DNA of 64,000 nucleotides, from NCBI GenBank assembly GCA_002345725.1, contig DDWP01000020.1:1433-65432 (forward strand). Reading direction: 5' to 3'. Below the pieces are notes generated by a model. The model was not told the DNA's origin, did no database searches, and saw nothing but the letters and a program-made list of their open reading frames with translations. Source of the DNA: Candidatus Shapirobacteria bacterium UBA2283 (GTDB taxonomy: Bacteria > Patescibacteriota > Microgenomatia > UBA12405). The translations under genes and the position numbers were made by a program. Shown in pieces: positions 1,786 to 52,708 of the stretch (the first letter of the stretch is position 1; each line of letters begins with the position of its first letter).

Positions 1786-1859
1786 GCGGGATTAGTTAAT
1801 CGGTATAACTTCAGTTTTCCAAACTGATATGAGGGGTTCGATTCCCCTATCCCGCTCCA
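1786..1859 (+). tRNA. tRNA-Gly (anticodon TCC), CCA encoded
   Basis: GCGGGATTAGTTAATCGGTATAACTTCAGTTTTCCAAACTGATATGAGGGGTTCGATTCCCCTATCCCGCTCCA; acceptor GCGGGAT/ATCCCGC, anticodon loop TTTCCAA. Confidence 0.85.
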
Positions 1860-3408
1860 GATGTGAATAATTTTCCGACAGAAGGGGTTTATCCCCATCT
1901 ATCGGGCTATTTACAGGTTCGAGCCGAGCAATTTCACCCTTTTGCAATTTATCTACCTGTTTGAGGAAGATAAACGTATTTAGAGCCTTGATTCGGACTA
2001 ATCCGTCTTTTAGCTCGAGGTTCGAGCCAAGAATCCTCAGTATCATCCTTCTGGCTTCTGGGTCCTCTTTAGCATCATCAAATAGTTGAATTATTTTTGA
2101 GGCAAAGGCTAAAACCTCTTCCATGGTTTTGGTCCATGAATCCAATCCATCCTGGGCAATAGCACCCTTAGTTTGCGTCTCCTCTTCGAGTATTCTGCTT
2201 TTCTCCTTTTGGTATTGGGCTTCATCAATCATGCCGTCAATTTTCATTCCATACAGGTTTTTCTTTTCGGTAAGGATGGCCTCAAGTCGTTTCGTTAATT
2301 TTCCTTTTTGATTCTTTTCAAATTCAAATTCTTTTTCGTTTCTTCTTTTGAGGTTACCCCTGATCCAAGTTATTAGATCGGGAGAGATTTGCAGGTTGGC
2401 AACGAACGCCAGAACCTGTTCTTCTAGCTTTATGGCATTAAGATACGGCTGACTACAGTGGCCACCTTTTTTGGTACAGCGAGCATAGATAAAGTTTTGT
2501 GACTTGCCAGTAGTTTTATAGTGCTTGGTTTTGTTTTCAGCTGTGATGGATGCACCACACTCTCCACATTTAAGTACTCTCATGAAGTAGAAATCATTAA
2601 AGTTTTTGAAAATTCTTTTCCGACCGTCGATGATATCCTGAACACGGTGAAATTCACTGAGAGTAATCATTGGTTTTTGCTTACCTTCATACCGTTCGCC
2701 ATTGTAGTCGAATTGGCCGGTATAGAACACACGTCGAAAGAACCGAAAGGCTTCGGTCTTGCTTATTGGTTTACCAGTCCGCTTACTCCGAAGTCCCAAG
2801 GCAGTGACTTTTGCTAGAGAGCTTATAACCGTCTCTGTCCCAGTGAGCATTAATTCCCACCACTTTCGGCATAGGTCGAAACGATCAGGATCAGGGTAAA
2901 CGTCCTTTTGACCCTTAGGCTTAGTTTGGTCGTTGAGATATCCAAGCGGCGCTTCTCCAGGCATCCAACCCATCGTGAGCTTGGTGTGCATGCCTCTCTT
3001 AACATTGTCAGACAAATCCTTACTAAACTTGGTGGCCATACCAAACTCAATGAAAAGGAAGGTTGAATTATTTCTATCATAATCCATGGTAGGCGTAACG
3101 ATTTGCATTCCCTCATAATCAACCTTATCAATGAGCGTACCTCCTTCTTTGGCATTTCGACATAATCGATCAGCCTTCCAGCAAAGGATGTGTTTTGCTT
3201 CATTTCGAAGCATTCTGGACAGTAAAGCAGTAAACTCTGGTCGCCTATCGGGTCTTTTGGCTGATTTGCTTTCTCTATAGACACCAAGAATTGTAAAGCC
3301 CTTATCTTCGGCTAATTCGGTACATGTTCTTTGTTGGTCATCTAGAGAAAGGATTTGGCGGTCTTTATCCTCAGAGGATTTTCTACAGTAAATAAAACAA
3401 GTATTCAT
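1792..3408 (-). CDS. large serine recombinase (phage-type serine integrase)
   Basis: N-terminus IYCRKSSEDKDRQILSLDDQQR (serine-recombinase catalytic motif), recombinase domain, zinc-ribbon CGECG...C...HC, C-terminal coiled-coil. The last ~23 codons are antisense to tRNA-Gly(TCC). Confidence 0.8.
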   Translation of the reverse strand: MNTCFIYCRKSSEDKDRQILSLDDQQRTCTELAEDKGFTILGVYRESKSAKRPDRRPEFTALLSRMLRNEAKHILCWKADRLCRNAKEGGTLIDKVDYEGMQIVTPTMDYDRNNSTFLFIEFGMATKFSKDLSDNVKRGMHTKLTMGWMPGEAPLGYLNDQTKPKGQKDVYPDPDRFDLCRKWWELMLTGTETVISSLAKVTALGLRSKRTGKPISKTEAFRFFRRVFYTGQFDYNGERYEGKQKPMITLSEFHRVQDIIDGRKRIFKNFNDFYFMRVLKCGECGASITAENKTKHYKTTGKSQNFIYARCTKKGGHCSQPYLNAIKLEEQVLAFVANLQISPDLITWIRGNLKRRNEKEFEFEKNQKGKLTKRLEAILTEKKNLYGMKIDGMIDEAQYQKEKSRILEEETQTKGAIAQDGLDSWTKTMEEVLAFASKIIQLFDDAKEDPEARRMILRILGSNLELKDGLVRIKALNTFIFLKQVDKLQKGEIARLEPVNSPIDGDKPLLSENYSHLERDRGIEPLISVWKTEVIPIN

Positions 3409-9562: not shown

Positions 9563-10204
9563 ATGAGCCCGCGTAATGCCCTGTGTGGGCAGATTCAAAT
9601 CAAGGTGGACCAGTTACACCTGCTAAAACATATGATAAAACCTAAACCAAAAAAACTACTAACACTGACAGTTTCAAAGATGCAAGACGAGACAGAACAG
9701 CAATATGCGGCATGGCTTCTTTATTGTGAGGCGGGCAGTATTGATAAGACCCAATTGGTGTGGGATAAGGTTGGACAAAACCTGGATGAAAGTTGGATGG
9801 TTTTAGCCAATCGGCTGGGCAAAAAGCCTAGTCATACAACCCTTGGTCTGTGGTCGAAGAAATATCGTTGGCCGGAGCGTCGTGATCTGAGATTGGAAGA
9901 AGAAATTGTTGAATTAAAGGATAAAGCAGACCGCTTCCGCAAGAAAAGAAAGTACCTGGTGACAGAACTACTTATCCAATCAGTGGCGAAGGTGCAGAAA
10001 CAAATCAAACAAACTCCCATATCAATCCTAGAGCTGAAATACCTTTGGGAGATGCATAGAACTGAGTACGACGAATCAATTGGAAAGAACGAGATCTCAC
10101 ACCGGATAGATGAGAGTGAGCAGGTACCACCCACTGATGAGGAAAAAGAGCTTGGTGTGGAGATTGATACAGCCATAAAAAAATATTATGACAAACAAAG
10201 ATAA
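9563..10204 (+). CDS. putative terminase small subunit
   Basis: Position immediately upstream of and overlapping terL; basic/coiled-coil protein; true start probably an internal Met (MIKPKPKK or MQDETEQ). Assigned by position only. Confidence 0.4.
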   Translation: MSPRNALCGQIQIKVDQLHLLKHMIKPKPKKLLTLTVSKMQDETEQQYAAWLLYCEAGSIDKTQLVWDKVGQNLDESWMVLANRLGKKPSHTTLGLWSKKYRWPERRDLRLEEEIVELKDKADRFRKKRKYLVTELLIQSVAKVQKQIKQTPISILELKYLWEMHRTEYDESIGKNEISHRIDESEQVPPTDEEKELGVEIDTAIKKYYDKQR

Positions 10205-11735
10205 AAACAGTGTTCTACACTGGATACTAAACAATAAAATTAAGAATGAGAACGGTGAACCCATCGAATTCGAGGACCACCGCTTCATGTTGGACATATA
10301 TGCAGATAAGTCGTCAGTACAGGTTATAAGGAAAGCGTCTCAGGTAGGAGCCAGCACAATGGAGATCCTCAAGGTTATTCACGACTCACGCTTCTGGGGC
10401 ATTAACCAAATCTACACGCTACCCACCGGGGATGATGTCCAACAGTTCGTACAAAGCAAAGTAAACCGGATAATAAACATTAATCCCTGCATGCTGGATG
10501 GCATTAACCCCAAGAGTGTGGACTCCATAGAGCAGAAGCAGATAGGCAAGGCCTTCACTTACTTTAAGGGTACGTTTACCGAGCGTGAGGCCATCATGCT
10601 GTCCTCTGACCGGAATATCCATGACGAGCTGGATAAATCTAAGCCAGAGGTGGTCCGTGACTACACCTCGCGTATGGGTTATTCCAAAATAAGAAGCCAG
10701 CACTTCTTCTCTACTCCAACCATCCCTGATTTTGGAGTGGATAAGATATTTGAACAATCAGACCAGAAATACTGGCGATTCAACTGCCCAAGCTGTCAGT
10801 ACAGGCAACACATGGAGTGGGAGAAGAACGTCGACGAGGCTCGAGGCATTTATATCTGTCAGAACTGTCAGGCAGAGATAAGCCCCAAACAAATAAATGA
10901 TGGTGGCAGCTGGGAGGCCAAGTACCCAGGTAGAGCAACCTCTGGCTACTGGATAAGCCAGTTGCACTGCCCATGGAAGACAGCGGCCGACTTAATCAAA
11001 GAGAAGGCAGATGCTGATGATGATGCCTATTTTTATAATTTTGTCTTAGGCCTACCATACTTAGCTGCCGACCAGAAAATACCAGCCAGCTTATTCCTAC
11101 GCAACGTTGTGGATAAAGAGGTGGATAACTTTGATGAATATAACGTCATGGGCATAGATACAGGGAAAGGAACCGGTAAGGGCAACCACGCCATCGTAGG
11201 CAACCAGAAGGGCATCTTTTGGGTTGGGATACTGCAAGATCATGAAGGGCATGATCGCTGGCAACAAGCGGCCGAGTTAATTACATTTTTCAATGTCAGA
11301 GTCGTGGTTATTGATGGCCAACCTTATACCGAGGAAGCTTTCCTCCTAGCCAAGCAATTCCCCTACAGGGTGTACTTATCCTGGTTTAAAGACGACCCCA
11401 AGATGCTAGAGGTAATACGCTTCTTTGATGAGAAGGAAAATAAGGACGCTGATTTTGAAGATGAGGTCAAAGTTTATTCCTCCCGGACCCGAATCATGGA
11501 TGACACCATTTCTGCCCTGCGCCGAGGAGAGATTCGATTTGCCATGCCATCCGACAGCCCAACCTTCAAACTGCTTATCACCCACGCCCAGACCATGTAC
11601 GCCAGGACAGTCACCGACAAGCTGGGACAGGCGAAACGAGAGTGGGCCAACACCGGTCCAAATGATTTTTGGTTAGCACTTATATATTGGCACATTGCCC
11701 TACGCAAAAGACTTAAATATGAACCAAACAAATAA
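10188..11735 (+). CDS. phage terminase large subunit (GpA-like)
   Basis: Deviant Walker A KASQVGAST, zinc-ribbon CPSCQY...CQNCQ, 515 aa, nuclease-like C-terminal half. Confidence 0.7.
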   Translation: MTNKDKNSVLHWILNNKIKNENGEPIEFEDHRFMLDIYADKSSVQVIRKASQVGASTMEILKVIHDSRFWGINQIYTLPTGDDVQQFVQSKVNRIININPCMLDGINPKSVDSIEQKQIGKAFTYFKGTFTEREAIMLSSDRNIHDELDKSKPEVVRDYTSRMGYSKIRSQHFFSTPTIPDFGVDKIFEQSDQKYWRFNCPSCQYRQHMEWEKNVDEARGIYICQNCQAEISPKQINDGGSWEAKYPGRATSGYWISQLHCPWKTAADLIKEKADADDDAYFYNFVLGLPYLAADQKIPASLFLRNVVDKEVDNFDEYNVMGIDTGKGTGKGNHAIVGNQKGIFWVGILQDHEGHDRWQQAAELITFFNVRVVVIDGQPYTEEAFLLAKQFPYRVYLSWFKDDPKMLEVIRFFDEKENKDADFEDEVKVYSSRTRIMDDTISALRRGEIRFAMPSDSPTFKLLITHAQTMYARTVTDKLGQAKREWANTGPNDFWLALIYWHIALRKRLKYEPNK

Positions 11736-16869: not shown

Positions 16870-17442
16870 ATGAAGTTAAAAACATTATTAGTATTTATCG
16901 CAGTAATTATTGGCTTAGGATTTATTATCAAAAACTTCTCTAATGGCAATTCAAAACAGGTGGCCTCCCCCACGCCATTGGAGGCGGTTAAAACGACACC
17001 GGATCCGATCCTGAGCCCAACCAGAGCACTCAAGCCAAACGAGGAGTTTATCTCGCCCTTTGGTTTATATGTTATTGTCCCCCAGGATATGACTTTTAGA
17101 AAAGAGGTAGCAGACAATGATGGCATTATCCATAGTGTCGGGTTTTATATCGAAAATAGCAGTAAAGATAATCCCTATATGTTGTATGGCCTCTACGAAG
17201 CCAAAACTGTTGTCACTGATCAAACCATGACAAGTGCTAAAAAAGACATGGTCCCATCGACAATCAAAGACATTACGATTGGTGGGTATAAGGGAGTCGA
17301 GGGATTAATAACCGGCGACAAGACCAGGTACATGGCTGTCATTGTCAAAGATGGTAAAAAGATCACCTTCTCAACTATTCCCCCAACCGAAGCAAACAAA
17401 GTAATCACAGATCAGCTTCTCTCCACTTTTAGCTTTCAGTGA
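16870..17442 (+). CDS. membrane-anchored or secreted hypothetical protein
   Basis: N-terminal TM/signal (LLVFIAVIIGLGFII), 190 aa. Confidence 0.45.
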   Translation: MKLKTLLVFIAVIIGLGFIIKNFSNGNSKQVASPTPLEAVKTTPDPILSPTRALKPNEEFISPFGLYVIVPQDMTFRKEVADNDGIIHSVGFYIENSSKDNPYMLYGLYEAKTVVTDQTMTSAKKDMVPSTIKDITIGGYKGVEGLITGDKTRYMAVIVKDGKKITFSTIPPTEANKVITDQLLSTFSFQ

Positions 17443-17452
17443 GGTAGACAAA

Positions 17453-17992
17453 TCACTCTAATTGTCTAATCGACCACTTGCTACTATTTTCTGGTTGCCA
17501 GGTAATCCATATTTCCTGAAAATATCTATCAAAATAACCATCCATTTTGAATGGGGTGTATCTTGTAGAAAAGGATTCAACATCAGAGTTTGTTAGTAAG
17601 GGGCTATGAAGATTGCAAAGTAGAAGGATTTCTCCCGTAAAACCATCATAGCTTTTCTTATTTAACTTCTCTAATTTTTTTGCTATCTCAAGTTCTAAAT
17701 TTTCAAATGTTACTAGTTTAAACTCAGGTCTTTCATTATTTACTTTTCCTCGTGCATCATTCCACATTTTGCGAGCCTGGTATTGATTGTCGTAAGCACC
17801 AACTAATTCAATAGCGGTGTTGTCACTGCAAATACAATCAGGCTCTTTTTTACTAGGATCACCCAACCTTGTGAAGCATAGATCGCTTTTATTTAGATCG
17901 TTATATAAGGTCAAGAAGCGTATTGAAGCTGCTTCTTCATGAGCTGATTTGAGTTGTGTATTTATCATTACTCTATAAGCTAATTTATCCAT
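17453..17992 (-). CDS. hypothetical protein, last gene of the defence operon
   Basis: 179 aa, 3-bp gap to the upstream gene on the same strand; no recognisable domain. Confidence 0.45.
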   Translation of the reverse strand: MDKLAYRVMINTQLKSAHEEAASIRFLTLYNDLNKSDLCFTRLGDPSKKEPDCICSDNTAIELVGAYDNQYQARKMWNDARGKVNNERPEFKLVTFENLELEIAKKLEKLNKKSYDGFTGEILLLCNLHSPLLTNSDVESFSTRYTPFKMDGYFDRYFQEIWITWQPENSSKWSIRQLE

Positions 17993-17995
17993 ACT

Positions 17996-18277
17996 CTAAA
18001 ACTTCTTACTTAGCCAATATATGATTAATCCAACAATTGAAGCGGCAACAATCTCCTTAATGAATTTGCCGATCCACCCAATGACCACCCTGATTTTCTG
18101 AAAAAGGAACTGCTTGTGAATATATAGGATGTCCGCATATTGCATCCTTTGCCAGTTCGTCAAATAACTTCTTCTAGCTCTCAAAAATAAAACATCATGC
18201 TCGGGTAATTTTTCACCTGCATTTAGTCTTAACAGGATCTTATCAAAAATGGTTTGGGCTTCTGGATTCATTGTCAT
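17996..18277 (-). CDS. small protein with C-terminal transmembrane helix
   Basis: 93 aa, ...EIVAASIVGLIIYWLSKKF; 8-bp gap after the Cas4-like gene. Confidence 0.45.
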   Translation of the reverse strand: MTMNPEAQTIFDKILLRLNAGEKLPEHDVLFLRARRSYLTNWQRMQYADILYIHKQFLFQKIRVVIGWIGKFIKEIVAASIVGLIIYWLSKKF

Positions 18278-18284
18278 AATTGTT

Positions 18285-19046
18285 TCACTTATGTTGTCCT
18301 AAAGATTTGATCGCATTGTTATACAGGCAATAGTCACAGTCCTGTCCCTGCTCTGGGTATTCGTCTGATTGTAGGCACTTGTGAGCCTCTGTAATGACAC
18401 CTTCGACCCATGAATCATCACCAACGTAGGGAATTAAGGTAATATCAAATTCAAGCTTGCTGTCGAACGCTTTTCTGTCTAGCTGTCCATTACAATAAAC
18501 AAAATAGCCAGTAGAAGAAACCTTATAGCCATTTTTACGTAGTAGCCATTGATACACCTCCATTTGACGTTTATAGCCATCTTGCCACTCTTTATTTAAC
18601 TCAGTAATCTCTTCACTTTTTGAAGTCGACTTATAGTCAACAATAATATATTCGCCTTGAGAGTTTTGCCAAAGATCATCAATGGCTCCAAAAATCAGGA
18701 GGTTGGTGGGTTTATGTAAATACTGGATACCAGTAAAATTATGCCGCCATTTTTCTAGATCAGCATGAGCAACAGGTCTTGCATCAACTCCGTATTTTTC
18801 AATTAATGGGTGTTTAGTACCATTGGCACGGTGAATGTCGAACTCTAGCTTGAGTAAATGGTCCACTGCGGAGTTGAGAGCAAAAGGGAAGCCTGGTGGA
18901 CGTGCCACGCCTAAACGACGATCAAAATAAAAACAGCGTGGGCAATTTATAAAAAGATCAATTTTTGATCGGGACAGTTTAAACGGCTCGGATGAGTTTG
19001 GATCATATAGCCCTTTGGTTCGTTGTGAGTTATAGTATTGAGACAT
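18285..19046 (-). CDS. Cas4/RecB-like PD-(D/E)xK nuclease with Fe-S cysteine cluster
   Basis: GAIDD...EYIIVDYKSTSK (D...D/ExK core); Cys at CPRCFY and C-terminal C-x12-C-x2-C; directly follows the UvrD-like gene (15-bp gap). Confidence 0.65.
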   Translation of the reverse strand: MSQYYNSQRTKGLYDPNSSEPFKLSRSKIDLFINCPRCFYFDRRLGVARPPGFPFALNSAVDHLLKLEFDIHRANGTKHPLIEKYGVDARPVAHADLEKWRHNFTGIQYLHKPTNLLIFGAIDDLWQNSQGEYIIVDYKSTSKSEEITELNKEWQDGYKRQMEVYQWLLRKNGYKVSSTGYFVYCNGQLDRKAFDSKLEFDITLIPYVGDDSWVEGVITEAHKCLQSDEYPEQGQDCDYCLYNNAIKSLGQHK

Positions 19047-19060
19047 AATTAATCAATCAA

Positions 19061-21001
19061 TTATATTTTTAGGAACGGGTATTGTTTATTCTGATTCTTA
19101 ATTATATATAAATTCTTTCTAGGTCTCGTTATCATAACGTATAATTTATTCAGTTCCTGGATATAATCATAAATTTCACCTATGTTAGCCTGGTATGTTT
19201 TCCCCCAGAAAATTGCACTGTGTAGTCCATAATTCGATTTATGTGGCAAGTCTTCAATTTTTTGGACAATCACCTGTTCGTATTCTAACCCTTTAATTTT
19301 ATGTATATATTTGATCTCAAAAGTAAGTTTTTCTGTATTTGATCTGGTAATGTACTGCAGAAAGCCCTCGAGCTTTGGTTCTGTGATGCCAGTGAGCGAA
19401 TCCATTTTGTCTGATTCGGAAATTGAAACAAAAACAGATTGTTGATTTTGATTTAAACTCAAGTTTGATTTTAGACTTGACACTAACCGCTCACTGAATG
19501 AAACAAATTCGTCAAAAATAGGCTTGTCTACGTCCAACGAAATTGACAAATCCGTGGAGTCTACCGTGATGCGAAGCAAAGCATTATTGGATATTTCGTA
19601 GTTTAATTTATCGAATGTTAATGACTGGAGCGAATAAACATATTTCTCTAAGGCTTTGGGGTATTTTAAACGGTTGTTATAAAAGTCATATTTCAAGACT
19701 AGATATTTAATGAACAATGAAAAGTACTTAAACCCATATTTGTCTTCATAGTCTTTATAAATTTCTGAGTATAAGCTAAAGTTATTTCCACTATCAGTTG
19801 TGTCGTGTAGTTTATATTGTTTGTATACATCGATAGAATTGAACCTATTTATTCCGATACAGCATACCTCTTCGTTTAGTAGTTCATTAAATTTTAGATT
19901 AACAATTTCGCTGACTGAAGAAATTGTGGATTTGATAATGACCTTGCCATCACCACCACTTCCTTGTAAATCATCAGATATCTCTAGATCATCTAGATAT
20001 CCGACGATTTCCTGATTGTTCAGGTTTTGAATGGGTCCGGATCTTTTTATTTGGTTTAAAACTTCGTTATAGTTTTTTCTTGCGAAATTAAAAACTTCAT
20101 TTGAACATCTATGAGTTTTTTCTAACTTAATTTCACAGTCAGCATTTTTATGTAATTTGTTAAAGAATGCCTTCATATCATACATACTTCTCGGATTCGC
20201 TCCTGCGAAGCCATATATTGATTGATTTGGATCGCCAACCATGAACCACTTTACCTCATTTTTCTTTTCACCACGGCTTGCACTTAGTTCCTCAATTATC
20301 TTGCACTGTATCTCAGAAACGTCTTGAAACTCATCGATAAAAATCCAATCGATAGATCTATTAAGTGCCCTTCTGACAATACGGTTCTCTTGGATAATAA
20401 ACAGGGAGAGAAGGTTAATTAGGTTAAAATCAATTAGTTTTTGTGTGCTTAGGAAATTTAGATACGATGCGATAGTGGGTATTTCATGAGCATTGCTAAC
20501 TGGTTTCCAACTTCCATTAACCAATTTCAAGTTATAATAAATTTTTCCACTCTCAAGAATCTTATTAATTTCTGACTCCTCGATGTTGTGTTTTTTCAGG
20601 TGGTCAATCAATAATTGCCCATGCTCTTGAAAGTTAAAAATCGTTTTATAAGGTCTCAAACCTTTGCTACTTTTATACAAATAGGAAAATGGTTGTAAAA
20701 CGTATTGCAAACAGAAACTGTGAAACGTAAGAAACTCAACTTTAGTTAATAATTCAGGCTTAAGTATTTTAGAGCAACTATCTTCAAGATCCTCCACATT
20801 AACATTGGTATAAGAAATACAACAAATTTTATTAATATGGGGATTATCTAACAACAAATTCTTTATCTTTAAGGTGAGGATTGTAGTTTTTCCACTACCA
20901 GGTAGAGCTCTCACAAGAGTGTCTTGATCGCGTTCAATAATTTCGATTTGTTTTGGTGATAAATCAAAATCTATGCCAAGTTTTATTTTGTAATTAACCA
21001 T
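19061..21001 (-). CDS. UvrD/Rep-family SF1 helicase (GajB-like)
   Basis: Walker A LPGSGKTT, motif II IFIDEFQD, motif III GDPNQSIY, motif VI VMITRPRKNLYI. Confidence 0.8.
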   Translation of the reverse strand: MVNYKIKLGIDFDLSPKQIEIIERDQDTLVRALPGSGKTTILTLKIKNLLLDNPHINKICCISYTNVNVEDLEDSCSKILKPELLTKVEFLTFHSFCLQYVLQPFSYLYKSSKGLRPYKTIFNFQEHGQLLIDHLKKHNIEESEINKILESGKIYYNLKLVNGSWKPVSNAHEIPTIASYLNFLSTQKLIDFNLINLLSLFIIQENRIVRRALNRSIDWIFIDEFQDVSEIQCKIIEELSASRGEKKNEVKWFMVGDPNQSIYGFAGANPRSMYDMKAFFNKLHKNADCEIKLEKTHRCSNEVFNFARKNYNEVLNQIKRSGPIQNLNNQEIVGYLDDLEISDDLQGSGGDGKVIIKSTISSVSEIVNLKFNELLNEEVCCIGINRFNSIDVYKQYKLHDTTDSGNNFSLYSEIYKDYEDKYGFKYFSLFIKYLVLKYDFYNNRLKYPKALEKYVYSLQSLTFDKLNYEISNNALLRITVDSTDLSISLDVDKPIFDEFVSFSERLVSSLKSNLSLNQNQQSVFVSISESDKMDSLTGITEPKLEGFLQYITRSNTEKLTFEIKYIHKIKGLEYEQVIVQKIEDLPHKSNYGLHSAIFWGKTYQANIGEIYDYIQELNKLYVMITRPRKNLYIIKNQNKQYPFLKI

Positions 21002-23244
21002 GATAAACCATCTTCAATATACTTCGGAATAACAAAGTCCGGTAAATCATCGAAGGCAGTAACACTGCTGCTTTTATCCACAACAGAATCACCATTCCAG
21101 GTTTCGATTTCCGCCGGGTCTTGAAGTAATTTTGCTTTAAGTAAAGATGACAAATATAACGATATGGATGGTTTAGAGACTTCGTTGCCAAGGATAATGT
21201 CAAAAAAGCTGTCGAATTTGTCCTTGTCTATACTATTAGATTTGACTTCATCTGCAAACTTATTAATGGCGTCAATTCTTTTGGAGAAAGTTTCATCTTT
21301 CTTAAAATAATCACCGTCCCTCATAAACCTGTATAGGATTAACTTCAGATACTCGACGTTATTTGCATTTGGGTTGGTCGGATCTGGAATAAAAAAACAG
21401 TCAATTTCAAAGGTATAAATATTTCTTTTTGTTACTACTAATTCTTTTTCTTGATCGGCGATTTCCGCATTTAATTCTTCATATTTTGCTTTGTAATCAG
21501 GTATCTTTTGTTCCTCTAAGTGAGAGTCTCCGTCTCGAAGATTTAAACATTTGTTATTTAAGCCTCTGGTCAAATCATTATTGAACAAAGCATTGAATGG
21601 ATCAAATATCTTTCCTCCCACCTCCACTATCTCTATACCTTCACTATCAATATCAATATTTATATCTGGATTAATGCTCTTTAAATATGAGTTGACTAAT
21701 GTTCCTAGTGTATATTTCTCAGACAACCCTTCCACTAAGATAATTTTTCGAGCAAACAACAGAGAAGATCTGGTAGCGTCTAGATATTGTTTAAGGATTC
21801 TTCTGTTATGTCCATATGTTTCGGAATTTGCTTGTAACACACTATCGATGTTAATTGCTTTTGCTTGATGGATTCCTTTTTGTAACACCACTAAGTTTTT
21901 GAGATCTGATTTAGAAGCGAGATGTGTGGAATGAGAAGTTTGTATTACTTGAGTAAAAGCAAAAAATTGTTTATCTTCATCTTCGCTTTCTTCCCCATTC
22001 GACTTATTTAATTCCATTAATTTCTGTGTTTTGTTCTCTATTTGGGTGTGTAGGTATTTTTGATTTTGGACATCTAAGTGTGCCTCTGGCTCTTCTATCA
22101 AAAGCAAATTGTATACAATCTTAATTTTTTCATCTGAATCATTAAGAATTAATTCCTTTTTGAGTTCAAATAACGCGAATATTGCCGAGATGTACGCTAG
22201 ATTTTGGTAACCCAATCCGACAACATTCATATCTTGAGATGTCTTTAAATCTTCGTTTAAGTTAACAAGAAAGTTGAAGTATCTGCCAATATTTTCTAGG
22301 GTAACTTTTGGAGTTCCAATAACAAGGTCAGCTCTATTTGACAAAAGATTAATGTCTTTATCTTGAAGACGCTTTTCAATTTCATCCAATAAAATGCTTG
22401 CTTCTGGGATAGCGCCACTTGTTCGCAAATTTTTTAAGGCGGCAGAGACTTCTTTAGAAACACTGTTATTACTATTGTTCTTAGCGCACCCTCTAATTAA
22501 TTGTGAGACTAATGAGCGGTAACCAAAGTAAAAGTCATTTTTAACGTCTCGTAAAGCGTCAAGAGCCAGTAAATTTATGTGTTTTCTAACCTTATTGGCA
22601 TAGGATTGTTTTGATAATTGTTTTTCCAGAACGACTTTGGGATTCTCTCGGATTTTTTCAATATCTTCTTCACTAAGGTAAAAGTATTTATAAAAGTCTT
22701 TTTTATCTTTACATCCGTGCAATGTCGAAATGATCGTGTCGCCGTAGTCTTTTGTTGATCCATCAGGAAGGTAATAATAACCTGAAGGGTGATATCTACC
22801 TGCAACTAAAAATCCTATGTAGTCCTCTTCGATATCGTAGCCTCCTTCCTTGTTGATGGAAGAAGGAGCGAATACAAATGATATATTTGCCTCAAGATTA
22901 TCCTCCGAGGAGTCTAGATCAATTCCGTTATTTGTAGGCGCAATAGAATATAAAAGTGATTGAATTTCTTCTTTGTTCGAGACGCTGCTGAAGGTTATAG
23001 TTATAACTATTTCCTCACCAGCAACCCAGCAATTAGCTTCCTTACTCCAACAAAAATCGTCTTCCGATAGTCTCTTGTCCCAAGGCGGCATGCTTGAATC
23101 TAGAACTAGTCGAATTGCTTGTAAAAAATTAGTTTTACCGGAGTTGTTTCCTCCAATCAGCGTAAGTGGACTTCCATCAGGAATAAACAGATCAAACTCT
23201 TCAAAGTTACGGTAATTTTTTATGTAGACTCTAGAGATGTGCAT
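20983..23244 (-). CDS. OLD-family ATP-dependent endonuclease: ABC-type ATPase plus Toprim (GajA-like, extended C-terminus)
   Basis: IKNYRNFEEF...LIGGNNSGKTNFLQAIRLVL (Walker A), LLLIEEPEAHLD (Walker B/D-loop), Toprim ILVEGLSE...GIEIVEVGGK...RDGDS; 753 aa; 19-bp overlap with the helicase gene. Confidence 0.7.
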   Translation of the reverse strand: MHISRVYIKNYRNFEEFDLFIPDGSPLTLIGGNNSGKTNFLQAIRLVLDSSMPPWDKRLSEDDFCWSKEANCWVAGEEIVITITFSSVSNKEEIQSLLYSIAPTNNGIDLDSSEDNLEANISFVFAPSSINKEGGYDIEEDYIGFLVAGRYHPSGYYYLPDGSTKDYGDTIISTLHGCKDKKDFYKYFYLSEEDIEKIRENPKVVLEKQLSKQSYANKVRKHINLLALDALRDVKNDFYFGYRSLVSQLIRGCAKNNSNNSVSKEVSAALKNLRTSGAIPEASILLDEIEKRLQDKDINLLSNRADLVIGTPKVTLENIGRYFNFLVNLNEDLKTSQDMNVVGLGYQNLAYISAIFALFELKKELILNDSDEKIKIVYNLLLIEEPEAHLDVQNQKYLHTQIENKTQKLMELNKSNGEESEDEDKQFFAFTQVIQTSHSTHLASKSDLKNLVVLQKGIHQAKAINIDSVLQANSETYGHNRRILKQYLDATRSSLLFARKIILVEGLSEKYTLGTLVNSYLKSINPDINIDIDSEGIEIVEVGGKIFDPFNALFNNDLTRGLNNKCLNLRDGDSHLEEQKIPDYKAKYEELNAEIADQEKELVVTKRNIYTFEIDCFFIPDPTNPNANNVEYLKLILYRFMRDGDYFKKDETFSKRIDAINKFADEVKSNSIDKDKFDSFFDIILGNEVSKPSISLYLSSLLKAKLLQDPAEIETWNGDSVVDKSSSVTAFDDLPDFVIPKYIEDGLSWLITK

Positions 23245-23260
23245 AGTTTATTAATTCCAA

Positions 23261-26200
23261 TCATTCACCTGATATATTAAAAAATCTTTCAAAAAATCTT
23301 GTGAGTTTGTCAAGTACGCTTTCACGCTTTTTGGTACGCTCACCTGTAGGAGAGAATCGAGATACTGGTGGTAAGATTTTTGTAATTGCCGTACCAGTTG
23401 TGGCGACGTTACCGTTTCGGAAAGCGTTCTTAATAAACGTATATGTTGCGTCATGATCTAGACCTTCACTTGTAATGATTTGCTCAAGTTCTTCTACCTT
23501 CTTGCCCTCAATAAATTTTCTCCAATCATCGTCCACAATTGAATGGACATCAAGCGATTCAATAAATTGATTGATAAGGTCTTTCTTGTTTCGCAATTCA
23601 ACGCTCGAATCGATGGCTTTATTAATATCAAGTAGAATTTCACGATTTTTTGTGTGATCCTCGTGGTACTTTTTTATCAGTCCTAGAATGTAATCAATAT
23701 TGATATCTACCTGTTTAATAAGCTCCATCTCAAATACTACATCATCATTAACATTTTCCTTACTGTCTTCTGTGCCTTTGCGGAATTCGTTATAAATATC
23801 AATATAAGCACTGTGGTAATCTTGAACGTCGCGCTCAGATAAGATCTCATTGCCCACAAATTCATCGAAGGTAGTCAGAATATTGCGTACTCGCAAAATT
23901 GCCCCATATAGTTTGATAAAGTCTTTTTGGTTTTGCTCGCCGATAATTCTTTCACCGACAGGAAATCTCTCTTGCAATTCTTTTACTAAACTTTCGTATC
24001 CCCTAATTTCTTTGCTGCCGTCGTTGTAACCATGGTAATAATCAGCATATGCCTTCAAAAGAACAATGCCGCTGGCTTCTTTATCTCCAAATAGGGCAAT
24101 GGACTCATTTGTGGCTTTCTCAAGGTTGCGAAAACAGACGATGTTCCCAAACGTTTTTACGCTATTCAAAATACGATTTGTCCGAGAATACGCTTGTAAT
24201 AATCCATGCAATCTCAAATTTTTGTCTACCCATAAAGTATTGAGAGTTGTCGCGTCAAAACCAGTTAAAAACATATTGACCACAATTAAGATGTCAATTT
24301 CCCGATTTTTCACTCGTTCGCTTACATCCTTATAATAGTTTTGAAATTTATCAGAGGAAGTATCATAGGATGTACCAAACATTTTGTTGTAATCAACAAT
24401 GGCACTTTCCAAAAAATCTCGGGAGCTTACATCAAGACCACTAGTGTCCTCCGAGTTTTCATCTATCATTCCGTCTGCATCCTCATCATTTACACCAAAA
24501 CTATAAATAGTCGCTACTTTTAGTTGTTTGTCGCTTGGGAGATCAGACAATTGTTTTTTAAACTCAGCGTAATACTTTTTGGCGACATCAATAGAAGAGA
24601 CTGCGAAGATTGAGTTAAAGCCGGCTAGTCTTCGATCCTTTAATTTATAAAAGCTATTGCGTTTAGTTTTCTGATCGAAATGTTCACGGATGTATCGAAC
24701 AATATTCTCTAGGCGTTCAGACGCAGCTAGAATTGCCTCACGGTCAATATCACTAACTTTTTTGTCTTCTATGTTTTCCGCTTCACGAACTGTCGAAATA
24801 TAGTCAACTTTAAACGGTAAAACGTTTTTATCTGCAATTGCATCTACAATGGTATATGTATGTAGCTTTTCTCCGAACGCTTGTTCGGTCGTCTTCAAAT
24901 CTGGACGACCTCCTGATGAGGCATTGATTGCAAAAATCGGTGTACCAGTAAATCCGAAGATATGGTAATTCTTAAATGTTTTGGTAATGGCGGCATGCAT
25001 GTCGCCAAACTGCGAGCGGTGACATTCATCAAATATTAGGACTACATGGTCATCAAAAATGGTGTGACCGGTATTTCGACTGATAAAACGATCGAGTTTC
25101 TGGATTGTGGTAATAATAATACGAGCATTTGAATTCTCGAGCTGTCGTGTCAAAATCGCTGTACTTGTATTACTGTTAGCAGCACCTTTTTCGAATTTGT
25201 CGTACTCTCGCATCGTCTGATAGTCCAAATCCTTGCGATCAACAATAAAAATAACCTTATCAATATAAGACAATTTGCTCGCCAATTGAGCTGTCTTGAA
25301 GCTGGTCAGGGTCTTTCCTGATCCAGTAGTATGCCAAATGTATCCACCAGCTTCTGCTGTCCCTAGTTTCTTATAGTTTGTACTAACTTCAATTCTGTTA
25401 AGAATTCTCTCTGTGGCGACTATCTGATAGGGGCGCATCACTAGAAGTAATTTGTCAGTAGTAAATACACAGTACCGAGTAAGGATATTCAAAATCGTAT
25501 GTTTTGCAAAAAAAGTCTTTGCAAAATCCATTAAGTCTGTAATAGGTCGATTGGTGGCATCCGCCCACCAACTGGTGAATTCGTAACTATTACTGGTTCG
25601 TTTGCCATTTTTAACAGAGCCTTCGTTTGAATCCTTTACATGCTGGTATCTGGTAGTGTTACTGTAATACTTGGTATGTGTGCCATTTGAAATGATAAAT
25701 ATCTGGACATATTCAAAAAGACCAGACGAAGCCCAAAAACTTTCTCGGTTATATCGATTAATCTGGTTAAACGCTTCTTGAATCGCTACTCCACGACGTT
25801 TTAGCTCGATGTGGACTAAAGGCAGCCCATTAACAAGAACTGTGACGTCATAACGATTAGCACGCTGGCCGTCTTCTGTTGCGTATTGGTTAATAACTTG
25901 CAGGCTATTGTCGTGAATTGAGTCTTTTTTAATGAGATAGATATTTTTTACTGTGCCGTCGTCACGGGTGAGATTTTTAATATGATCTTCTTGAATCGTT
26001 GCTGTTTTTTCAGTAATACTCTGATTTGGATTTGCAAGTTCACTTACAAAAAATCGTTCCCATTCGAGGTCTGAAAATGTAAATGCGTTTAGCTTTTCTA
26101 ATTGCTTACGTAAGTTCGCTATCAAATTAGCCTCTGAGCTAATAGTCACATATTCATAAGCCTGCAATTCCAGTTGCTTAATAAAAGCTCGTTCGAGTTC

Positions 26201-26308
26201 TGCCTCACTTTGATAGTTTGTCGCGCGAACACTTTCCGGTGTGTACTCGGAAACAACAGTGCTCTGCGTATTCTTAGCGACTAGATTGTATTTGTTATTA
26301 ATTGGCAT
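23261..26308 (-). CDS. hsdR: type I restriction enzyme R subunit
   Basis: SF2 helicase motifs HTTGSGKTLTSF, LIFDECHRSQ; 1015 aa; adjacent to hsdS and hsdM. Confidence 0.85.
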   Translation of the reverse strand: MPINNKYNLVAKNTQSTVVSEYTPESVRATNYQSEAELERAFIKQLELQAYEYVTISSEANLIANLRKQLEKLNAFTFSDLEWERFFVSELANPNQSITEKTATIQEDHIKNLTRDDGTVKNIYLIKKDSIHDNSLQVINQYATEDGQRANRYDVTVLVNGLPLVHIELKRRGVAIQEAFNQINRYNRESFWASSGLFEYVQIFIISNGTHTKYYSNTTRYQHVKDSNEGSVKNGKRTSNSYEFTSWWADATNRPITDLMDFAKTFFAKHTILNILTRYCVFTTDKLLLVMRPYQIVATERILNRIEVSTNYKKLGTAEAGGYIWHTTGSGKTLTSFKTAQLASKLSYIDKVIFIVDRKDLDYQTMREYDKFEKGAANSNTSTAILTRQLENSNARIIITTIQKLDRFISRNTGHTIFDDHVVLIFDECHRSQFGDMHAAITKTFKNYHIFGFTGTPIFAINASSGGRPDLKTTEQAFGEKLHTYTIVDAIADKNVLPFKVDYISTVREAENIEDKKVSDIDREAILAASERLENIVRYIREHFDQKTKRNSFYKLKDRRLAGFNSIFAVSSIDVAKKYYAEFKKQLSDLPSDKQLKVATIYSFGVNDEDADGMIDENSEDTSGLDVSSRDFLESAIVDYNKMFGTSYDTSSDKFQNYYKDVSERVKNREIDILIVVNMFLTGFDATTLNTLWVDKNLRLHGLLQAYSRTNRILNSVKTFGNIVCFRNLEKATNESIALFGDKEASGIVLLKAYADYYHGYNDGSKEIRGYESLVKELQERFPVGERIIGEQNQKDFIKLYGAILRVRNILTTFDEFVGNEILSERDVQDYHSAYIDIYNEFRKGTEDSKENVNDDVVFEMELIKQVDINIDYILGLIKKYHEDHTKNREILLDINKAIDSSVELRNKKDLINQFIESLDVHSIVDDDWRKFIEGKKVEELEQIITSEGLDHDATYTFIKNAFRNGNVATTGTAITKILPPVSRFSPTGERTKKRESVLDKLTRFFERFFNISGE

Positions 26309-27482
26309 ATTCTTTGAAACTTAACAATTTATTTCGATAGTATTCATATTGAGATCTTCTAGCGGCAAGCTCAGCAGGTAAACCTATTGAGATGTCGTTC
26401 ACTAATTTTTCAAACTTATCAAGAATAATAACGATATTTTCCTGTTGGGTTATGGTAGGAATAGGAAGTAATAACGATTTAACTATCTCAGCATTTAAAT
26501 TTTGTACAGTTCCATTCGATGCTTTTTGCGTCATTGTTTGATAGACGGCGTCTGAGCTTAAAAGGTGGTATAAAAAATCTGATATATATGTTTTGTTGAA
26601 ATCACTTATGGATAACCAACCGTCATGTATGCACCCATCGATTTTTAAAATATATGGTCGACCAAAACTCATTGAGTTTGATAATACAAAATCACCTTTT
26701 TTAACAAATCTCGATTTCTGAGCACCTTCTGGTTTAATTTTTTGCAAAGTTTGCGTTATATATTTACTTCCCTTTTCAACATCACCAATTTTTATCCAGT
26801 TGATACCGTTTTCTTCCTTAGTAAAATAATTATTAATTGGCCGTGGAGAACCACCCCTGACAATCTTTGCACTTTCTCCAAACTTCGCCCACTTTATGTC
26901 TTTGCCAAACTCCAAGAACTTTGAACGATAGTGATTGTATTGCTTCTTCCTTGCTTCCAGCTCCGCTTCCAGCTCCGCTTCCAGCTCTGTGAAATTATTA
27001 AGAATTTTGACTATTTCATTTTGTATTGCAAGCGGTGGCAATGGGATTTTAAATTTGGAATACTGGGAAATCCAATGACGAGCATGGTCTGTTGGAGTGT
27101 AGTTAATACACTTCATTGCGTAATACAAAAATCTAAAATTCACACCAGCGTTTTGTTTCGGTCTTAACATTTTCATTGCTGAAGACTTAACTTTAAATTT
27201 AAAATCAACCCAATGAAATGAAGTAGTAAAATCATCAAAGATAATTACAGGCTTATCTTTACTTGCTTCGTATATTCCTTCTGTTTCGTCTGTGTAGCCG
27301 AGGACAAAGCTTTGTCCTGCAGTCAAAACTGGAGTTGCGAAATCATTGCTATATTCTATTGAATTAACTATGTAATCCCCAGGTTGCTCATAGTCCAAGA
27401 GATCATCCAATTCTTTGAAATCAACCCCTTTGGGGCACAACTGTGTAATTAATTTTTCTATTTTGCCTTGTTTGTTAGTCAT
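26298..27482 (-). CDS. hsdS: type I restriction-modification specificity subunit
   Basis: Two TRDs separated by a central conserved coiled-coil (ELEA)x3-RKKQYNHYRSKF, and C-terminal AELAARRSQYEYYRNKLLSF. Confidence 0.8.
   Translation of the reverse strand: MTNKQGKIEKLITQLCPKGVDFKELDDLLDYEQPGDYIVNSIEYSNDFATPVLTAGQSFVLGYTDETEGIYEASKDKPVIIFDDFTTSFHWVDFKFKVKSSAMKMLRPKQNAGVNFRFLYYAMKCINYTPTDHARHWISQYSKFKIPLPPLAIQNEIVKILNNFTELEAELEAELEARKKQYNHYRSKFLEFGKDIKWAKFGESAKIVRGGSPRPINNYFTKEENGINWIKIGDVEKGSKYITQTLQKIKPEGAQKSRFVKKGDFVLSNSMSFGRPYILKIDGCIHDGWLSISDFNKTYISDFLYHLLSSDAVYQTMTQKASNGTVQNLNAEIVKSLLLPIPTITQQENIVIILDKFEKLVNDISIGLPAELAARRSQYEYYRNKLLSFKEYAN
26953..26988. repeat. 12-bp tandem repeat x3 (GCTTCCAGCTCC) encoding (ELEA)3 in the hsdS central conserved region
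   Basis: Three consecutive copies at 26953-26964, 26965-26976 and 26977-26988 (last with 1 mismatch). Confidence 0.8.
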
Positions 27483-27486
27483 ACTT

Positions 27487-29070
27487 TTATGTTGAACCTT
27501 CGATATCGTTTACAATCTCGTCGATGGCTGTTCGGAGTTCGTTTTGTCTCGCCACAATCTGGGTTATCTTTGCATTAAGCTTAGTTATATCCACTGCCTC
27601 ACGAGTATCTTCTGCTACCACATAACTTGACACCGCAACGTTGTAATCGTTATCAGCAATGGTTTTGTTGTCTATAAGTTTGGCAAAATACTCAGAGTCT
27701 TGACGGTCACAAAATGCATTCAAAATTTTTAGACGATTGGCCTCGCTAAGTTTGTTTTTATTTCCACCCCTCACAAACTCTGCAGAAGCATCAATAAAGA
27801 GAGTCTTATTGTCCTTTTTGCTCTTTTTGAGAACAATGATGCATGTTGCTATACCTGTTCCAAAAAAAAGATCTGGGGGTAGCTGAATAACAGTGTCTAC
27901 GTAGTTGTTATCGATAAGGTATTTACGAATCTTTTGTTCTGCACCGTTACGATAGAGAACTCCTGGAAATTCAACAATCGCTGCCGTGCCGCTTGTTGAG
28001 AGCCATGAAAGCATGTGCATGGTAAAAGCAAGATCGGCTTTGCTTTTCGGGGCCAAAACACCCGCTGGAGAGTAGCGTGGATCGTTTATAAGAAGTGGAT
28101 TAGCGTCACCATCCCATTTTATTGAATAGGGTGGATTAGAAACTATCGCATCAAAGGGTTCTTCGTCCCAATGTTTTGGATCAGTGAGAGTATCGCCAAG
28201 GGCAATGTCAAAGTTGTTGTAGTTAATGTCGTGCAAAAACATATTGATACGGCAGAGGTTGTAGGTAGTTAGGTTGATTTCTTGTCCAAAAAAACCTTGA
28301 CGCACATTTTCTCTTCCAAGAACCTTGGCAAATTTGAGAAGAAGCGACCCAGAACCACAAGCCGGATCATATACTTTATTAACTTCTTTCTTGCCTACTG
28401 TAGTAATCTCAGCAAGCAGCTCACTAACTTCTTGTGGAGTATAAAATTCACCACCAGATTTGCCTGCATTCGAGGCATACATGGTCATCAGAAACTCATA
28501 TGCATCCCCGAAAGCATCAATGGTGTTGTCGGAATAATTTCCAAGGCCAAGATTACCAATTGCCTCCAAAAGTTTAACGAGTTTCTGATTCCTTTTTTCT
28601 ACAGTATTGCCTAATTTGTTGGAATTCACGTCAAGATCGTCAAACAGTCCCTTAAGATCATCCTCGCTGCTTGCGCCTTTTGCTGAGTTTTCTATCTTAT
28701 TAAAAACAGTTGATAAAGTCTCGTTGAGATTTGCATCATTGCGTGCATTTTTACAAACATTTGTAAAAAGCTCGCTCGGCAAAATATAGAACCCTTTTTC
28801 CTTAACAGTATCTGTCCGACCAAATTCTGCCTCTTTATCCGATAGATTTGCGTAATCAAAACCTTTTTTGTCTGCACGACGTTCATCATCGTTAATGTAG
28901 TTAGCTAAATTCTCGCTGATAAAACGATAAAAAAGCATTCCCAGTACATACGATTTAAAATCCCAGCCATCAACGCTTCCTCTTAAATCATTAGCAATTT
29001 GCCAAATAGCACGATGCAACTCTGTACGTTCTTGTTCTTTGGTTCTATCTTGAGAATCTGTTTTTTTCAT
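27487..29070 (-). CDS. hsdM: type I restriction-modification N6-adenine methyltransferase subunit
   Basis: HsdM N-domain (IWQIANDLRG...YVLGMLFYRFIS), motif I DPACGSGSLL, motif IV SNPPYS. Confidence 0.85.
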   Translation of the reverse strand: MKKTDSQDRTKEQERTELHRAIWQIANDLRGSVDGWDFKSYVLGMLFYRFISENLANYINDDERRADKKGFDYANLSDKEAEFGRTDTVKEKGFYILPSELFTNVCKNARNDANLNETLSTVFNKIENSAKGASSEDDLKGLFDDLDVNSNKLGNTVEKRNQKLVKLLEAIGNLGLGNYSDNTIDAFGDAYEFLMTMYASNAGKSGGEFYTPQEVSELLAEITTVGKKEVNKVYDPACGSGSLLLKFAKVLGRENVRQGFFGQEINLTTYNLCRINMFLHDINYNNFDIALGDTLTDPKHWDEEPFDAIVSNPPYSIKWDGDANPLLINDPRYSPAGVLAPKSKADLAFTMHMLSWLSTSGTAAIVEFPGVLYRNGAEQKIRKYLIDNNYVDTVIQLPPDLFFGTGIATCIIVLKKSKKDNKTLFIDASAEFVRGGNKNKLSEANRLKILNAFCDRQDSEYFAKLIDNKTIADNDYNVAVSSYVVAEDTREAVDITKLNAKITQIVARQNELRTAIDEIVNDIEGST

Positions 29071-29072
29071 AA

Positions 29073-29249
29073 TTATTTTCCATTTTTATGACTAATAAAT
29101 TTTTCGATATCTTCCTTTTTGTATCTGCGAACCTTTTTAATCCCAATTCGTATGGCTTTTAGTACACCTTTCTTGTCCCATAATCTAAGAGTGTTAGGGT
29201 GTACTTTTAGTATCTGAGCTGCTTCACTTAGTGTTAATAGTTCTTCCAT
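29073..29249 (-). CDS. small HTH_17 (excisionase/AlpA/MerR-like) DNA-binding protein, 58 aa
   Basis: Minus-strand translation MEELLTLSEAAQILKVHPNTLRLWDKKGVLKAIRIGIKKVRRYKKEDIEKFISHKNGK; stop is 2 bp before the hsdM start; below the track length cutoff. Confidence 0.55.
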   Translation of the reverse strand: MEELLTLSEAAQILKVHPNTLRLWDKKGVLKAIRIGIKKVRRYKKEDIEKFISHKNGK

Positions 29250-29370
29250 ATGATTTACCTACCAATTTATACTAATAGCATACAAAAAAAACTGATATTT
29301 TTCAACAGTTGTCACCAGAAACGAGCTAGCATTTGACACTTTAATTTTATAACCTGAGATTGTAACTAAT

Positions 29371-29440
29371 TTGCCTAACGAACCTGTCGGGGCTTAGGTT
29401 TGTCTATTTCAACCGAGTAGATGAACCTAAGCCCCTTTTT
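29371..29440 (+). promoter_or_regulatory. conserved box TTGCCTAACGAACCTGTCGGGG plus 12-bp-stem hairpin and T5 (copy A), 11 bp before the portal ATG
   Basis: Stem GGGGCTTAGGTT (29389-29400) pairs with AACCTAAGCCCC (29424-29435), then TTTTT; box is repeated at 34448. Confidence 0.55.
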
Positions 29441-31904: not shown

Positions 31905-31939
31905 AAATTAGTTTACTGGCTTATATATCTAAATTATTT

Positions 31940-32866: not shown

Positions 32867-32871
32867 AATTT

Positions 32872-52549: not shown

Positions 52550-52610
52550 CATTTAGTTAATAACTACGAATTAACAATTATAAATTAATTGGTATAATAA
52601 CTTTACTTCC

Positions 52611-52682: not shown

Positions 52683-52708
52683 ACATTGTATTGAAATATT
52701 AATAATTT

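Follow-up and report, generated by a model that had tools for sequence, protein, structure and literature searches.

Evidence for a two-gene Gabija within a modular defence island on a SU10-like prophage of a Candidatus Shapirobacteria bacterium

Overview of the Defence Island

A stretch of 64,000 nucleotides from Candidatus Shapirobacteria bacterium UBA2283 (contig DDWP01000020.1, positions 1,433 to 65,432; hereafter the window) was analysed with a focus on a series of minus-strand genes that starts with gajA and gajB, the gene pair of the Gabija defence system. The region is, very probably, the 3′ half of a modular defence island of ~12 kb carried by a SU10-like prophage of a candidate phyla radiation (CPR) bacterium, in which a canonical two-gene Gabija is accompanied by modules that are independent of it. 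Comparison with related loci and phages brings out the modular composition of the island, the independence of its modules, the insertion site and the pattern of gene conservation. No new Gabija architecture is involved: the pair, although divergent in sequence, makes up an ordinary two-gene cassette next to a type I restriction-modification (R-M) system. The region also provides a clean, sequence-resolved hotspot for defence islands in a CPR prophage, with empty sites and alternative cargo in related phages. Its features, listed in the direction of transcription of the island genes after the island itself, are the following.

17443..29344, strand not applicable: whole inserted defence island, delimited by comparison with empty-site phage genomes
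29073..29249, minus strand: HTH_17/MerR-type DNA-binding protein, 58 amino acids (Pfam HTH_17 4.7e-12, MerR_1 4e-9)
27487..29070, minus strand: hsdM, type I R-M methyltransferase, 527 amino acids (Pfam N6_Mtase 1.1e-112, HsdM_N 2.7e-21)
26298..27482, minus strand: hsdS, type I R-M specificity subunit, 394 amino acids (Pfam Methylase_S 2.9e-24, two stretches)
23261..26308, minus strand: hsdR, type I R-M restriction subunit, 1015 amino acids (Pfam HSDR_N, SWI2_SNF2, T1R_D3-like, EcoR124_C)
20983..23244, minus strand: gajA, OLD-family ABC ATPase and Toprim nuclease, 753 amino acids (PADLOC and Pfam)
19061..21001, minus strand: gajB, UvrD-like superfamily 1 (SF1) helicase, 646 amino acids (PADLOC, Pfam and phmmer)
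18285..19046, minus strand: solo Cas4-like PD-(D/E)xK nuclease with a cysteine cluster, 253 amino acids
17996..18277, minus strand: p93, rare small protein whose hydrophobic C-terminal segment is a probable membrane anchor, 93 amino acids
17453..17992, minus strand: p179, rare small protein with a predicted restriction-endonuclease-like fold, 179 amino acids as called
29389..29435, plus strand: terminator-like G+C-rich hairpin of 20 pairs with a T-run after it, shortly before the portal gene

The GajA/GajB Pair

A preliminary description of the window had identified the first two genes of the region as GajA and GajB, a class 2 OLD protein and a UvrD-like helicase, and PADLOC, Pfam and phmmer agree on this assignment. 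GajA matches Pfam AAA_15 (2.9e-26, residues 1-443) and OLD-like_TOPRIM (2.1e-10, residues 496-573), its best PADLOC GajA match is at 8e-63, and several GajA profiles align to its C-terminus. The ~180 amino acids at this end had been taken for an additional extension; the alignment of two PADLOC GajA profiles (PDLC00069 and PDLC00091) reaches residues 751-752, which assigns the C-terminal part to a known GajA subfamily. GajB matches Pfam UvrD-helicase (1.2e-37) and UvrD_C (1e-7) as well as PADLOC GajB (3.2e-50), and is related by phmmer to the solved Bacillus cereus GajB chains (~2e-12). The same type of search gave no match of GajA to the solved B. cereus GajA at 1e-3, the only hits being OLD proteins from Thermus and Xanthomonas.

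A metagenome scan with GajB recovered five close loci (L089-L093) whose GajAB proteins are 56-77% identical to those of the window. In L089 the gene order is hsdM (87% identical to the one in the window), gajA, gajB, hsdS, with 77% identity for GajA and 73% for GajB. L092 and L093 carry gajB, hsdS and hsdR in this order, their hsdR being 71-79% identical to that of the window; GajAB identity in these three loci is 68-77%. The neighbours are unrelated in L090 and L091, where GajAB identity is 56-60%. GajA and GajB were found together in L089, L090 and L091, that is, in three different contexts, and tblastn detected neither the nuclease nor p93 nor p179 in any of the five loci. Since the context varies among these closest relatives and the three downstream genes are missing from all of them, GajAB is a self-contained two-gene cassette, which either interrupts or follows one and the same kind of type I R-M operon. 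The position of the nearest relatives (L089, L092 and L093) is between hsdM and hsdS of this R-M family.

Two further loci reveal what can occupy the place of Gabija. The hsdM and hsdR genes of the window recur in L015 and L051 (76-78% DNA identity; hsdR 87-89% identical), with homology running up to 23250-23266 and resuming at the nuclease, from 19037-19052. Between these borders L015 carries genes for a Schlafen-AlbA_2 protein and a protein of 243 amino acids, while L051 carries a 991-amino-acid Ppl-like ATPase. Because other cargo is found there between a shared hsdR and a shared nuclease gene, the hsdR-to-nuclease interval is an exchangeable slot, held by Gabija in the window.

These results bear on the proposal of the preliminary description that all five genes from gajA to p179 form one expanded Gabija, with the iron-sulphur (Fe-S) nuclease, the membrane protein and the 179-amino-acid protein as dedicated accessory subunits. 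The five genes are co-directional and tightly spaced, near-identical strains keep them in the same order (contigs of 12318, 12308 and 10981 bp), and recent literature ties Gabija to the biology of DNA ends, PMC12407980 reporting that phage RecBCD antagonists sensitise phages to it. Besides the exchange of cargo in the slot and the absence of the three genes from the closest GajAB loci, however, no GajA or GajB gene adjoins the nuclease in any of 86 other nuclease loci, 80 of which (72-86% identity) come from a scan of species representatives and six from contig look-ups. Moreover, both p93 and p179 are encoded elsewhere in the absence of each other, of the nuclease and of Gabija, and the G+C content of the GajA/GajB genes (33-35%) differs from that of the nuclease gene (40%). 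As GajAB stands alone elsewhere and the three genes are conserved separately, the five-gene reading is unsupported and we regard it as very unlikely. The likeness to AddAB-like pairing of a helicase and a nuclease, also put forward earlier, fares no better: UvrD-helicase is an upstream neighbour of the nuclease in 2 of 54 scanned loci, and no helicase cluster co-occurs with it.

Insertion Site of the Island

Most of the window is a single prophage of ~50 kb, extending from about 1555 to 52000, with host genes from about 52-53 kb onward. The 90% identity cluster of its large terminase gene (terL) includes a Candidatus Woesebacteria record and is represented on contigs of up to 808 kb, and related terminases are carried by 21 IMG/VR viral contigs. 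Genomes related to the prophage in IMG/VR measure 34.6 kb without islands and 55-62 kb with islands. The empty site, seen in the 34.6 kb genome L107 and in the shorter contigs L108 and L110, consists of a gene of 190 codons followed by ~140 nt and the portal gene. The window is homologous to L107 and L110 as far as 17438, where the 190-codon gene ends, and again from 29345-29368, so 11.9 kb are inserted between these points. The genes of the island have a G+C content of 32-40% versus 41-47% in the neighbouring phage genes. In L100 and L101 (55-59 kb) a different island lies at the same site and comprises genes for an HTH_17 protein, an HKD-Snf2 helicase, a type IIG-like methyltransferase, a Ppl-like ATPase, the nuclease and a trypsin-like peptidase.

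The hairpin at 29389-29435 forms the right flank of the insertion site. L107, L108 and L110, the phages with an empty site, retain it with compensatory substitutions, and it probably either terminates the accessory operon before it or has a regulatory function. No direct or inverted att-like repeat of at least 9 nt was found in a comparison of the two island ends (17400-17520 and 29240-29400), a result that lends no support to site-specific insertion. The nuclease gene belongs to the inserted segment: it left no trace in L107, L108 and L110 and is present in the island-bearing L100 and L101. We had considered it as a core gene of the phage and rejected this option on its absence from the empty-site phages. 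Homologues of the HTH_17 gene head the islands of L015, L100 and L005 as well. As a general partner of the nuclease, which would give the islands two conserved ends, the HTH_17 gene was discarded after it was detected upstream on the same strand in 6 of 93 loci, a count obtained by tblastn with a 58-amino-acid query that is insensitive.

Gene Spacing and Transcription

The five ORFs (open reading frames) of the earlier report are all present on the minus strand at the coordinates listed above, with an overlap of 19 nt between gajA and gajB. The spacers that follow gajB had been given as 15, 8 and 3 bp and measure 14, 7 and 3 nt. The homologues of p179 have 166-174 amino acids and their alignment to p179 begins at Met9; as they are shorter and align from this residue, the true start of p179 is probably at 17968 (171 amino acids), in which case the p93-p179 spacer would probably be 27 nt.

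Co-directional genes continue upstream of gajA. A spacer of 16 nt separates it from hsdR, and the run extends over hsdR, hsdS and hsdM to the HTH_17 gene, which is its first member and ends 2 nt before hsdM. By Pfam, the type I R-M system is complete in the window, with HsdM, HsdS and HsdR all encoded and adjacent. The operon had been described as one of five genes; the run comprises nine (HTH_17, hsdM, hsdS, hsdR, gajA, gajB, nuclease, p93 and p179), and since it continues past gajA the transcription unit is probably one of nine genes. Gaps of 2-27 nt or overlaps between consecutive genes, together with the failure to find a convincing terminator within the run, suggest that the nine genes are co-transcribed. 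Comparison with other nuclease loci points the same way, as the nuclease mostly shares its strand with the gene before it; upstream of its ATG, the 80 loci of the species scan yielded no promoter, ribosome-binding or recombination motif, the sequence being A/T-rich only, with conservation beginning at the ATG.

The Cas4-Like Nuclease

The nuclease was previously called Cas4/AddB-style with a cysteine cluster, a description that is correct as far as the fold is concerned. It matches Pfam PDDEXK_1 (3e-14) and stays below the Cas4 family cut-offs (TIGR00372 37.4 versus 65; PF01930 14.2 versus 22.7). In an alignment of 42 homologues the residues D123/D124, D137-Y-K139 and Q161..Y165 are invariant and correspond to RecB/Cas4 motifs, including QxxxY. 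Cys35, 38, 185, 224, 237 and 240 are invariant too. Their arrangement is C35xxC38 ... C224x12C237xxC240 as opposed to C...CxxCx5C in the four-cysteine Fe-S cluster of Cas4, five of the cysteines lying at equivalent ends of the protein. A sequence search of the PDB gave no useful matches. No cas gene neighbours the nuclease in the window, and no Cas family is among the 25 commonest Pfam families in the summaries of upstream and downstream neighbours of the other nuclease loci.

More than 8000 homologue clusters were found for the nuclease, and the best 120 are 77-99% identical to it; these belong to Paceibacterota, Magasanikbacteria, Taylorbacteria, Azambacteria, Andersenbacteria and other CPR groups. 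At the level of 50%-identity representatives, 323 clusters have E <1e-30, some of them from marine Chloroflexota. A pattern scan of one genome per species placed close relatives in 310 of 185,579 species representatives, and the protein is 72-99% identical across more than 300 species. It is 78-84% identical in genome pairs whose terL, portal and major capsid proteins are 52-78% identical. The ratio of nonsynonymous to synonymous substitution rates (dN/dS) relative to L001 is 0.047, dS being saturated in the other nine pairs tested. These values indicate that the nuclease is under very strong purifying selection. The nuclease genes of L036, L039 and L044 are intact on translation.

The genes adjoining the nuclease differ widely on its two sides. 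Its two upstream neighbours in other genomes include reverse transcriptases (RVT_1), AAA_21/Ppl-like ATPases, HerA, SMC-like ATPases (SMC_N), type I, IIG and III R-M enzymes (ResIII/HsdR/MmeI/Eco57I), DrmD-like HKD-Snf2 helicases, the toxin-antitoxin components PemK, SocA and CopG, and AbiV. Of 79 loci, 67 have the immediately upstream gene on the strand of the nuclease, and the median gap is 7 nt. On the downstream side the neighbours vary and are for the most part ordinary genes. Because defence genes precede it and mostly ordinary genes follow it, the nuclease typically sits at the 3′ edge of defence genes. A constant partner did not emerge from all-against-all clustering of the proteins of 83 loci; the largest co-occurring cluster, of ~483 amino acids, is found in 15 of the 83 and, judging by size and position, probably consists of serine recombinases.

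Three observations on the upstream neighbours are added here. An ATPase of 900-990 amino acids recurs directly upstream of the nuclease (L001, L002, L051, L052 and L100); it matches the PADLOC Ppl model (E 1e-27 to 1e-43) in its C-terminal part, while the N-terminal two-thirds are unannotated, and the 936-amino-acid gene product of L002 is counted with the Ppl-like ATPases by size only. Parcubacteria ADurb.Bin326 has two nuclease copies, with different upstream genes, on two contigs (L033 and L047) of one metagenome-assembled genome. DUF3800, a family also encoded at the left end of the prophage, occurs upstream of the nuclease in another locus.

A literature search on a nuclease of CPR defence islands, or on a hotspot of CPR prophages, returned nothing specific beyond Hudaiberdiev et al. 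2017 (PMC5704561). In its passages on solo-Cas4, these proteins, of unknown function, are common in CPR genomes and adjoin R-M genes in DPANN archaea.

The Small Proteins p93 and p179

Neither p93 nor p179 has a match in Pfam, PADLOC or NCBIfam, and PHROGs gave none for p179. The C-terminal transmembrane helix attributed to p93 in the preliminary description is consistent with its hydrophobic C-terminal stretch (Kyte-Doolittle maximum 1.75, residues 72-90). Both proteins are rare, with 17 homologue clusters for p93 and 55 for p179. Invariant residues of p179 are E11, E42-P-D44, E54, K98 and K101 (171-amino-acid numbering from Met9). A search of the PDB with a p179 profile gave no useful matches and a BFVD fold search nothing significant; on its predicted fold, p179 is plausibly a small PD-(D/E)xK-type nuclease.

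The window, L001 and L002 have the genes for the nuclease, p93 and p179 in one and the same order (72-96% identity), behind different upstream systems. Such recurrence, along with the nuclease-like fold predicted for p179, which would make a set of two nucleases and a membrane protein, speaks for a three-gene defence or exclusion module that is proper to this phage lineage and separate from Gabija. The members of the trio nevertheless come apart elsewhere. In L096 and L097, from the same phage lineage, p93 (86% identical) is directly followed by a conserved phage gene, without p179, and in L095, where the nuclease is missing, p93 is preceded by a type III R-M system. p179 is preceded by three unrelated genes in L007 and L008 and by a trypsin-like peptidase in L098 and L099, in all cases without adjoining Gabija, nuclease or p93. 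The related phage L100 has a trypsin-like peptidase in the position that p93 and p179 occupy in the window, and of the 86 other nuclease loci only L001 and L002 have p93 and p179 behind the nuclease, the other 80-plus having neither. A dedicated trio is therefore improbable in our view, and the reading of the island as a series of independent modules is retained.

Within that reading we suggest, with little confidence, that p179 could act as a small nuclease effector and p93 as a membrane-anchored exclusion factor. Peptidases of the Trypsin_2 type, which lie directly upstream of the p179 homologue in L098 and also fill the slot after the nuclease in L100 (10759-12042), hint at another small defence-like module.

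Possible Function of the Island and of Its Nuclease

The island is best explained as a string of independent modules, as opposed to one system, transcribed opposite to the structural genes of the phage. The first module consists of the HTH_17 regulator and the type I R-M enzyme, predicted to cut unmodified DNA. The second is the two-gene Gabija. Published passages on the system describe GajA as an OLD nuclease that nicks DNA and is inhibited by nucleoside triphosphates, and GajB as a UvrD-like ATPase whose depletion of nucleotides, on sensing of DNA ends, releases GajA. In the window, nicking by GajA would likewise be released by nucleotide hydrolysis of GajB on sensing DNA ends. The third module is the solo Cas4-like nuclease, which would work independently of whichever system precedes it and is most likely a 5′-end-resecting exonuclease acting on DNA ends made by the DNA-cutting systems upstream; the island itself would in this way supply a clean-up or resection role similar to that of RecBCD/AddAB. 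The fourth is formed by p93, probably anchored in the membrane, and p179, with its predicted PD-(D/E)xK fold, possibly a small nuclease. Expressed from the lysogen, probably as one operon, the island is predicted to protect against superinfecting phages.

For the nuclease we see two explanations of its place in the islands. It could be a dedicated, near-universal last gene of the defence islands of CPR bacteria and of their prophages, serving as a shared helper in DNA-end processing or as an island-maintenance factor. Such a helper would work with any DNA-targeting system upstream (R-M, Gabija, Ppl, reverse-transcriptase or HerA systems) and would substitute for RecBCD/AddAB, its extreme conservation being due to action on DNA ends rather than on phage proteins. 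To our knowledge, reduced CPR genomes lack RecBCD/AddAB activity. We propose this role tentatively, as a possibility that deserves some weight. If the nuclease is a functional companion, it would represent a defence step shared downstream of diverse systems in organisms mostly without CRISPR; it would also be a generic guilt-by-association marker for new defence systems in CPR genomes.

Alternatively, the nuclease may have no defence role and be a constrained DNA repair or recombination gene that serves as homology arm for the exchange of cassettes, that is, a passive anchor of the hotspot. The extreme purifying selection and old divergence of the protein are unlike those of arms-race genes, and the downstream neighbours are mostly ordinary. 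Homology between loci starts exactly at the nuclease ATG: this is where the DNA homology of the window with L001, L002, L003 and L005 ends (19046/19047). Within lineages (window/L001/L002; L024/L028/L033/L041/L048) the downstream side of the nuclease is conserved and the upstream side variable. Solo-cas4 genes, moreover, evolve like regular cellular genes, under moderately strong purifying selection near the genomic median, according to the evolutionary analysis of Hudaiberdiev et al. 2017 (PMC5704561). Such a passive role is at odds with the strict association of the nuclease with the island, its absence from phages with an empty site, its occurrence twice in one genome and its nearly constant co-orientation, within a few nt, with the last defence gene. 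Its restriction to 310 species representatives also means that it is not a universal core gene. The passive role thus appears rather doubtful to us, although the data do not separate it from that of functional companion.

Several points weigh against the overall interpretation of the island given above. A promoter-like site with 10 of 12 matches lies at 19088-19060, just upstream of the nuclease ATG, and could provide this gene with its own promoter; the argument for co-transcription of the nine genes is one of spacing. The end-processing role of the nuclease is suggested by its fold and context, and a gene that was nothing more than a conserved recombination anchor would be linked to defence genes just as tightly. 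In the lineage to which the window, L001 and L002 belong, the nuclease, p93 and p179 may have a local functional connection. Exact peptide words were used to find the 80 species loci, which represent the closest relatives (at least 72% identity), and the neighbourhood statistics come from a simple ORF caller and from Pfam summaries of the 25 commonest families.

Other Features of the Prophage

The left end of the prophage has three tRNA genes and a gene for a large serine recombinase (3408..1792). Next come genes coding for a DUF3800 protein, an HTH_19 protein, a replication initiator, Dcm and ParB-methyltransferase proteins, terS, terL (10188-11735), a sigma factor and YceG. The DUF3800 gene, at 3918-4547, is situated beside the integrase. 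Past the island are found the genes for the portal (29452-31296), the SU10-type major capsid protein (35961-37127) and an amidase, as well as one for a 1541-amino-acid LPD38 (large-polyvalent-protein domain) protein (45173-49798) in the phage structural or injection region, with a C39-like peptidase gene next to it. A second block of opposite strand (31293-34288, minus strand) lies between the portal and capsid genes; its aldo/keto reductase (31940-32866) and D-2-hydroxyacid dehydrogenase (32872-33840) look like metabolic “moron” cargo. Six tRNA genes (Leu, Phe, Gly, Val, Leu, Gln; 52468-53160) are arrayed where the prophage ends on the right or immediately past that point, and from about 51 kb on the GC skew has strongly positive values. 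The host genes that follow encode a solute-binding protein, LexA, phosphoenolpyruvate synthase and an ABC ATPase.

Comparison with Known Systems

The closest known system is Gabija, whose prototype is from Bacillus cereus VD045. The window shares with it the order of an OLD-family ABC ATPase-Toprim gene followed by an overlapping UvrD-like SF1 helicase gene, and its proteins match the PADLOC GajA and GajB profiles strongly; pairs of the window type move between contexts as a two-gene unit. They differ from the prototype in length (753 and 646 amino acids versus roughly 580 and 495), in the low sequence similarity of GajA and GajB to the solved proteins, and in the location of the pair on a CPR prophage, inside or beside a type I R-M operon.

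Defence genes embedded in type I R-M operons are known, as in the case of prrC within the hsd operon. The closest GajAB relatives resemble this arrangement in being inserted between hsdM and hsdS. In the window, by contrast, GajAB comes after hsdR and the operon is uninterrupted; the likeness is one of gene position only.

The nuclease is comparable to the solo-Cas4/pfam12705 nucleases (PMC5704561) as a stand-alone PD-(D/E)xK nuclease with conserved cysteines and without CRISPR-cas neighbours. It departs from them by scoring below the Cas4 family cut-offs and by its other cysteine spacing. A location at the 3′ edge of diverse defence islands, conservation across more than 300 species and carriage by prophages are not described in the solo-Cas4 passages of that paper. 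Unlike AddAB, AdnAB and RecBCD, the nuclease of the window has neither a helicase fusion nor an obligate helicase partner, and the helicase encoded here is the one of Gabija.

Prophages and satellites such as P2 and P4 reportedly harbour hotspots of defence genes (Rousset et al. 2022). The site described here shares with them variable defence cargo at a fixed position of an otherwise syntenic phage, related phages being empty or carrying other cargo. It is distinguished by its CPR host and SU10-like phage, by its place between the accessory genes on the terminase side and the portal gene, and by islands that end with a Cas4-like nuclease gene.

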